In this document: in pieces, positions 41,012 through 42,028 of the stretch
Layout of the letters: every line of letters starts with the position of its first letter
Numbering within the stretch: the stretch's first letter is position 1
Virus record (IMG/VR): IMGVR_UViG_3300023235_000014
Direction: 5' to 3' (one strand)
From: a virus
DNA: 64,000 nucleotides
Notes under the pieces: model-generated
What the model was told of the DNA's origin: nothing
The model's input: the letters and a program-made list of their open reading frames with translations, nothing else
The model's database searches: none
Program-made: the position numbers and the translations under genes

Positions 41012-42028
41012 TTACTTCTTAAGTGTTTCAAGAATCTTGGCAGCCACCATATAAGGGTCGGCGTTCGAAGCGGGCCGGCGGTCCTCCAGGTAACCTTTCC
41101 AACCATTCTTTGCAACCCCGAGTGGTATGCGAATTGAAGCCCCCCTGTCGGATACCCCATATGAAAAGGAATTAATATGTTGTGTCTCATGAAGCCCCGT
41201 GAGACGCTTATCATTATCATGCCCATAAACAGCGATGTGCTCAGCATGCGTTTTACCAAACTTCTCACAAATCCCTGTGAATAGTTTTTCACCGCCAACC
41301 TCACGCATTGCCTTGGTGCTGAAGTTGGCATGCATCCCCGAGCCGTTCCAATCTCCATGGACGGGCTTCGGGTGGAAGGAAACCTCAAGATTGTGTTTTT
41401 CAGCAACACGGAAAAGGAAATAGCGGGCAAGCCAACAGTCGTCTGCTGCTACCTTTGCCCCCTTGCCGAATACCTGGTATTCCCATTGGCCAAGCATCAC
41501 CTCAGCATTGACTCCAGTCATACTCAAACCTGCGTGCAGGCATACGTCTAGGTGTTCTTCAACGATCTCACGCCCTGTGACGTTCTTGTGTCCAACTGCA
41601 CAGTAGTAAGGCCCCTGAGGCTCTGGAAAGCCTGAGGCTGGAAATCCGAGTGGACGGTCTGTTCCTGGAACCATGAAGGTGTACTCTTGTTCATAACCGA
41701 ACCAGGCTTCTTTGTCATCAGTAAACTTAGCCCTTTGGTTGGTCTCGTGTGGTGTGCCGTCGGCATTACAAACTTCACACAGAACGATGCAGGCGTTACC
41801 TTCACCACCTCGTCCTCTATCTGCAACAAGGCGAATAGGTTTTAACAAACAGTCAGACTTGTCGCCTGTGGCCTGATTTGTGGAACTCCCATCAAAAGAC
41901 CACGTCGGCACATCTTCAAGTCCAAACGTCCCACTCTCACCTTCACCAATAATAACTTTTGTTTTACTTCGGAGTTGCGGATTTGGAACTGTCCCGTCTA
42001 GCCAGACGTATTCTACTTTGATCAACAT
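41012..42028 (-). CDS. glnII: Glutamine synthetase, type II (eukaryote-like GSII)
   Basis: 'VEYVWLDG', 'WFGYEQEYTF', 'FPEPQGPYYCAVG', 'NGSGMHANFSTKAMRE', 'YLEDRRPASNADPY' are collinear with GSII ('YIWIDG', 'WFGMEQEYTL', 'GAGCHTNFSTKAMRE', 'YFEDRRPSANCDP'). Confidence 0.9.
   Translation of the reverse strand: MLIKVEYVWLDGTVPNPQLRSKTKVIIGEGESGTFGLEDVPTWSFDGSSTNQATGDKSDCLLKPIRLVADRGRGGEGNACIVLCEVCNADGTPHETNQRAKFTDDKEAWFGYEQEYTFMVPGTDRPLGFPASGFPEPQGPYYCAVGHKNVTGREIVEEHLDVCLHAGLSMTGVNAEVMLGQWEYQVFGKGAKVAADDCWLARYFLFRVAEKHNLEVSFHPKPVHGDWNGSGMHANFSTKAMREVGGEKLFTGICEKFGKTHAEHIAVYGHDNDKRLTGLHETQHINSFSYGVSDRGASIRIPLGVAKNGWKGYLEDRRPASNADPYMVAAKILETLKK

Follow-up and report, generated by a model that had tools for sequence, protein, structure and literature searches.

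Glutamine synthetase (GS) genes have already been reported from hundreds of large phages. [quoted passage not shown] One of these reports, a 2026 paper, found glnA to be common in large phages and to cluster with prokaryotic homologues, and a further paper lists it among the auxiliary metabolic genes of jumbo phages. As early as 2007, the type II GS sequences presented in the GOS paper numbered more than 1,000; most of them were bacterial, and the tree also held a large viral group (PMC1821046).

The gene studied here is located in a 64,000-nucleotide stretch of viral DNA (IMG/VR record IMGVR_UViG_3300023235_000014), the whole of which is referred to as the window. The locus shares with the reported glnA genes of huge, jumbo and large phages the enzyme itself, a carrier that is a marine or freshwater tailed phage of more than 200 kb, and a proposed role in nitrogen and glutamine supply, and the moraphage description fits it in particular, considering a contig of 284,850 bp and Bacteroidota-leaning signals. 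It differs from these reports in that GS is placed directly upstream of a gene resembling that of the major vault protein (MVP); the word "vault" appears nowhere in the papers examined for it. A pattern scan of IMG/VR recovered 453 viral contigs encoding relatives of this GS, many of them 100–300 kb long, and four huge-phage genomes in GenBank (635–735 kb) encode a relative with 50–61% identity. A first-pass annotation of the window had called phage-borne GS unusual. Set against these counts, the published totals and the viral group of the GOS tree, this description had to be given up, and the finding is to be regarded as real but ordinary.

Class II glutamine synthetases (GSII) consist of an N-terminal beta-grasp and a C-terminal catalytic domain in approximately 330–380 residues, as compared to ~470 for GSI and ~730 for GSIII. 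The reading frame at 41012–42028 on the minus strand runs from ATG to stop exactly between these positions and encodes 338 residues, comprising N- and C-terminal domains that align end to end with GSII structures and with the GlnII model of NCBIfam (NF041605, 429 bits). The Pfam family Gln-synt_C was matched at 9.7e-19, and the match to Gln-synt_N, at 30.3 bits, was slightly short of the 33.4-bit cutoff. In a phmmer search of the PDB the best match was GSII from Streptomyces coelicolor (4bax, 2.8e-105, 52% identity), followed by the yeast enzyme (3fky, 3e-102) and by GSII from plants, Drosophila and mammals (1e-96 to 1e-87, with the human enzyme at ~1e-87), whereas GSI and GSIII structures were retrieved at 1e-12 or weaker. 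Among the PHROGs a weak match was obtained to phrog_21628, a family of unknown function (4.1e-17). The predicted product is a true GSII and belongs to the bacterial (GlnII) type.

The score of 429 bits is below the curated 500-bit cutoff at which NF041605 assigns the equivalog name "glutamine synthetase GlnII". This was considered as evidence against GlnII membership and dropped, as the chromosomal GlnII copies of cultured Stieleria, Tenacibaculum and Maribellus, which belong to the same clade, score lower still (386–419 bits). Consequently, the cutoff excludes the marine clade as a whole and not the phage gene specifically.

The active site was assessed by alignment with human GLUL (sequence identical to PDB 8dnu), S. 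coelicolor GSII and yeast Gln1. At each of the 24 functional positions examined, which cover catalytic, metal, ATP, glutamate and ammonium-pocket/flap residues, the phage protein has the residue of human GLUL. All six metal ligands are retained (E113, E115, E176, E183, H233 and E315, equivalent to human E134, E136, E196, E203, H253 and E338). The same is true of every residue in the human set for ATP, glutamate and the ammonium pocket (D63, S66, W130, Y162, N248, G249, N255, S257, R262, R299, E305, R319, R324, Y336, R340 and R341); the phage protein here carries D46, S49, W109, Y142, N228, G229, N235, S237, R242, R275, E281, R295, R300, Y313, R317 and R318, of which D46, S49, Y142 and E281 belong to the ammonium pocket. 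In a 170-sequence alignment, each of the 100 columns conserved at 95% or more in 167 other GSII sequences is identical in the phage protein. An AlphaFold monomer model (pLDDT 83.8, pTM 0.88) matched GSII chains with TM scores of 0.80–0.86, the best again being 4bax (0.86). In combination, these data bear out the annotated full set of GSII catalytic motifs, and careful alignment, which the annotation had named as the way to overturn it, revealed no missing catalytic residue. A change from QVGP to QVFGKG in the ATP-binding strand was examined as a potential defect and rejected, since the marine clade throughout has QVFGKG as its consensus. From this conservation we infer a catalytically competent enzyme that would perform the ATP-dependent amidation of glutamate. 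D46 and S49 are N-domain residues that complete the active site of the neighbouring subunit, and the protein would be expected to assemble as a decamer of two pentameric rings with the active sites between subunits.

The GS superfamily also contains paralogues with altered amine specificity, and the possibility was considered that the product is a GS-fold ligase acting on another substrate, such as a gamma-glutamyl-amine or polyamine synthetase, or that it has a mainly regulatory or moonlighting role. A weak secondary NCBIfam match to gamma-glutamylputrescine synthetase (2.8e-8) and the score under the GlnII equivalog cutoff could be taken to favour such an assignment. However, the GlnII match exceeds that to any other family by ~400 bits, bona fide chromosomal GlnII proteins of the same clade score similarly on the GlnII model, and both the ammonium-pocket/flap residues and all the highly conserved GSII columns are kept. 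The alternative is thus regarded as very improbable, and the gene is treated below as one for a glutamine-forming GSII.

The annotation had further described the enzyme as "eukaryote-type" and had named phylogenetic placement among GSII as a check, which was carried out here as an NJ tree (Kimura distances, 324 columns, 200 bootstraps). The phage protein makes up a virus-only sub-clade together with the viral sequences of loci L002 and L003 (bootstrap value 1.0), and this group is nested within a 165-member GlnII clade whose sequences come from marine bacteria, archaea and viruses, likewise with a value of 1.0. Eukaryotes form a clade of their own (0.995), and they and S. coelicolor fall outside the marine clade. 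The deeper order within the marine clade is weak (bootstraps of 0.05–0.2), and for this reason no donor phylum can be named. The closest proteins overall are metagenomic sequences with 78–81% identity. The nearest cellular homologues, from Bacteroidota, Verrucomicrobiota and Planctomycetota, are 64–68% identical, and those of Gammaproteobacteria and others follow at slightly lower identity.

The comparison with individual relatives leads in the same direction. Marine bacterial GlnII proteins (Bacteroidota, Planctomycetota, Verrucomicrobiota, Gammaproteobacteria) are 57–68% identical to the phage protein over the full length of ~330–340 residues, similarly have no eukaryotic N- or C-terminal extensions, share the motif NAEVMLGQWEYQxFGKGAK, including the FGKG variant of the QVGP strand, and are found in the same clade; the phage gene is set apart from them by being phage-encoded and by its place in the virus-only sub-clade. 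GSII from S. coelicolor is also a short bacterial enzyme and provides the best structural match, but it is located beside the eukaryotes in the tree. Eukaryotic GSII (human GLUL, yeast Gln1, plant GS1) has the same fold, identical catalytic residues and 43–49% identity. Conversely, it forms the separate clade noted above and carries an N-terminal extension of ~20–25 residues, and the C-terminus of human GLUL is longer; none of these extensions is present in the phage protein. In view of the tree placement, the missing extensions and the shared marine-clade motifs, "eukaryote-type" is valid as a class label only and fails as a statement on evolutionary origin, the best PDB match being bacterial as well. 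As part of a reading that we consider highly probable as a whole, an ancestor of the phage lineage would have taken the gene from the marine prokaryotic GlnII pool and not from a eukaryote. With such an origin, the gene gives no evidence of eukaryote-to-phage transfer.

The annotation placed GS next to an MVP gene, and this is what was found. Directly downstream, at 38184–40919 on the minus strand, is a gene for a 911-residue MVP-like protein with shoulder and repeat regions (Pfam MVP_shoulder, 6.7e-24; weak Vault_3). A homologue of the eukaryotic major vault protein is a rarer sight in a phage genome than GS, and the literature search returned no description of MVP in phages. For this protein 1700 metagenomic homologues were found, among them proteins with 54–87% identity on metagenomic contigs, several of which appeared phage-like among those inspected; proteins of Myxococcota MAGs are 46–50% identical, and the huge phages LR756500 and LR756501 also encode MVP-like homologues.

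The two genes share more than their strand. The 9-mer AAAAGAGGC is found 7 nt upstream of the GS ATG (42036–42044, minus strand) and 5 nt upstream of the MVP-like ATG (40925–40933, minus strand), and these are its only two copies in the window, most other genes of which have AGGA or GGAG or no Shine-Dalgarno sequence. The annotation had taken the shared ribosome-binding site as a sign of co-regulation. The presence of one 9-mer at both starts was confirmed, but the conclusion drawn from it was not: since L002 has TTGAGG in front of both genes in place of AAAAGAGGC, the shared element is read as a Shine-Dalgarno sequence with a GAGG core rather than as a dedicated regulatory element. Co-transcription is better backed by other features, namely the common strand, the hairpin-free spacer of ~90 nt (z = −0.46 by RNA folding, no significant structure) and a strong hairpin with A and U runs that begins 22 nt after the MVP stop codon (38132–38162, minus strand; −24.9 kcal/mol, z = −5.9), a probable intrinsic terminator. 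GS and the MVP-like gene thus probably share one transcription unit closed by this hairpin. A consensus scan of the spacer also gave a sigma-70-like match (TTAACA, 16 nt, TATAAT; 11 of 12 positions) at 40959–40986 on the minus strand, a match of pattern from which the MVP-like gene may also have its own transcription start.

A motif of the type (C/A)TATTTAC(T) was sought as a means of dating GS expression and is absent upstream of GS. Similar sequences were observed elsewhere in the window, at 5083, 10822, 11384, 31323, 32949, 35796 and 36285 (plus strand), 12–83 nt upstream of several plus-strand genes. Of the 12 matches to [AC]TATTTA[CA] in the whole window, six are placed in this way, and the site at 10822 fits the related pattern [AT]ATTTAC[TC]. 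A weak related sequence, AATTTACC, is found upstream of the MVP-like gene. The motif may represent a promoter element of the phage or of its host.

The order and orientation of the GS–MVP pair are kept in L002 (GS 80%, MVP 82–84% identical) and in L169 (GS 78%, MVP 67% identical). A contig of 7,720 bp probably has the same adjacency, judging from the matching sizes of the contigs of P0002 and P0122. Conversely, 80 GS loci from IMG/VR have no MVP gene within 8 kb, including L003, the GS of which is 71% identical; the related phages L166, L167 and L168 encode MVP homologues (63–69% identical) with no GS beside them; and in the huge phage LR756501 the two genes are ~130 kb apart. Among the genomes compared, only the closest relatives have the two genes side by side, and in other relatives GS or the MVP-like gene is found singly. 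As each gene occurs independently in this manner, adjacency by descent is favoured, and in the simplest reading of these gene orders GS entered one sub-lineage by insertion upstream of an MVP gene that is itself conserved more widely.

The pair could instead be a functional bicistronic module, in which a vault- or SPFH-like shell scaffolds or encloses the enzyme or its product pool. The short spacer on one strand, the identical 9-mer confined to these two start sites, the lack of a terminator between the genes combined with the strong hairpin after the second, and the order preserved in L002, L169 and probably the 7,720-bp contig would all be expected of such a module. Still, the 80 GS loci with no nearby MVP gene, the MVP homologues of L166, L167 and L168 with no neighbouring GS, the distance between the genes in LR756501 and the near-consensus promoter-like site within the spacer argue against it, and we attach little probability to a functional module. 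Insertion of an independent accessory gene next to the MVP-like gene is the reading retained here.

The genomic setting of the pair was evaluated from the window and from longer contigs. A GS protein with 100% identity is encoded on four contigs, and the window is part of the longest of these, ENA ERZ27315719 k141_17111 (284,850 bp). The window encodes a Gp23 capsid protein (Pfam, 1.6e-79), sheath-like and baseplate-J-like proteins, and further a Mom-like protein, an RNA-ligase-like protein and two GIY-YIG homing endonucleases; phage genes flank GS for tens of kb on both sides. On this gene content the source genome is identified as a T4-like jumbo myovirus of ~285 kb. A megablast search with 12 kb around GS gave no match among GenBank phages, where relatives were found at the protein level only, and no tRNA gene was detected when the window was scanned. 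The nearest cultured relative by capsid protein is a Flavobacterium myophage (46% identity over 60% of the protein), and the capsid also matches the huge-phage assemblies LR756508 and LR756511. The host is probably a marine or aquatic bacterium, with Bacteroidota as the leading candidate; the assignment is weak, as it derives from the 46% identity to the Flavobacterium phage capsid, the many genes with no Shine-Dalgarno sequence and the poorly resolved GS phylogeny.

The third-position GC content of GS (GC3 0.469) is close to the GC content of the window (0.461), and comparison with the L002 orthologue gave a pN of 0.126 and a pS of 0.77, the synonymous sites being saturated. Given the phage-like GC3, the saturated pS and the low pN, the sequence identifies GS as a long-resident gene under strong purifying selection and not as recent host debris. 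The gene is found inside a bona fide viral genome, and it encodes a homologue of a cellular enzyme that has been kept under purifying selection. In view of this viral context, selection and cellular homology, the annotated status of an auxiliary metabolic gene is supported as the best and most reasonable reading. That GS is instead cellular, either a mis-joined bacterial fragment or recently captured, non-adaptive host DNA, is hardly credible: some "viral" GS contigs in IMG/VR do carry bacterial genes, e.g. for TonB-dependent receptors, and the closest cellular homologues reach 64–68% identity, but the phage genes on both flanks, the identical protein on four contigs, the orthologues that independent samples (L002, L169) show among the same neighbouring genes, the substitution pattern (pN of only 0.13 at saturated pS) together with the phage-like GC3, and the fully supported virus-only clade all speak against it.

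The explanation that best accommodates these results as a whole, and which we hold with considerable confidence, is that of a prokaryote-derived, GlnII-type GS that resides as an accessory gene in a jumbo myophage of ~285 kb and would supply glutamine. In the proposed sequence of events, GS would be transcribed in the infected cell, probably as a single mRNA that includes the MVP-like gene behind it, and the enzyme would make glutamine from glutamate, ammonium and ATP independently of the host's own GS. GSII does not have the adenylylation loop of GSI, and for this reason the phage enzyme would be expected to evade host controls aimed at GSI, escaping the post-translational regulation that acts on GSI-type enzymes. 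Glutamine donates its amide nitrogen in the synthesis of purines, pyrimidines, NAD and amino sugars, and the outcome would be that nucleotides, amino sugars and amino acids can be made from a sustained supply of this nitrogen while the phage replicates.

A glutamine-consuming partner enzyme was sought in the window and none was found. Likewise, clustering of the reading frames of 84 viral GS loci gave no recurrent amidotransferase, PII, AmtB or GOGAT, and these loci thus show no conserved nitrogen or glutamine module beside viral GS. The neighbours that do recur are cysteine-synthase-like, thioredoxin/glutaredoxin-like, cyclophilin-like, lysozyme-like and sugar nucleotidyltransferase-like, labels which were assigned by eye from representative sequences and not by a family-library scan. 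As no glutamine-consuming partner recurs, the suggested benefit to the phage follows from general reasoning. If active, the enzyme would keep glutamine flowing in infection and would represent one more case of large aquatic phages intervening in nitrogen assimilation; such intervention is already in the literature, and this GS adds no new principle to it.

Several other features of the region were recorded. In L002, the nearest of the sequenced relatives, a gene for isocitrate lyase (18079–19425, minus strand) lies ~7 kb from the GS–MVP pair; the window showed no such gene. Isocitrate lyase, too, has been reported among the auxiliary metabolic genes of huge phages (bioRxiv 10.1101/2025.02.27.640493). 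The hairpin downstream of the MVP-like gene is followed by a small reading frame at 37635–38066 (minus strand), the product of which starts with MKKTIAIFALLTAMPLVGC, resembling a lipoprotein signal peptide with a lipobox, and gave no family match in Pfam or PHROGs.

The protein motif [KR][WF][QK]xLAG[IL], usually followed by I/L-x-E, occurs in eight copies in the window, at 25576, 35808, 42869, 43587 and 43970 (plus strand), at 49986 (minus strand), and also at 21650 and 34556. Six of the eight are at the extreme N-terminus of small reading frames, three of which directly adjoin GS. The motif resembles the capsid-targeting sequence of T4 with the L/I-x-E cleavage site of the prohead protease, and this analogy suggests that the small proteins form a family whose members are packaged internally or ejected. 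More unusual than GS are the MVP-like gene and these small proteins, whose N-terminal motif looks like one for capsid targeting.

On the other side of GS, at 45392–47512 (minus strand), is an actin-like gene of the Volactin family (PF25216, 7.2e-59) that is split by an intein with Hint and LAGLIDADG domains; the orthologues in L002, L003, L166 and L167 encode 334 residues and have no intein. The two free-standing homing endonucleases are of the GIY-YIG/NUMOD type by family match (4076–5068, plus strand; 30310–31257, minus strand), and one of them separates the sheath-like gene from the large structural gene that comes next. The stretch at 16311–19806 (plus strand), which immediately follows the capsid gene, encodes the Mom-like protein and then a TnsA-like endonuclease N-domain fused to an N6/N4 DNA methylase; the two may form a DNA-modification module. 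A 457-residue protein encoded at 32964–34337 (plus strand) gave weak matches to ART-PolyVal (ADP-ribosyltransferase) and GNAT acetyltransferase. Finally, a run of nine G (~24080–24097, plus strand; GGAAGAGGGGGGGGGACTAC) was observed directly upstream of the GTG start of the reading frame at 24098–25051, and could be a slippage-prone or assembly-sensitive homopolymer.
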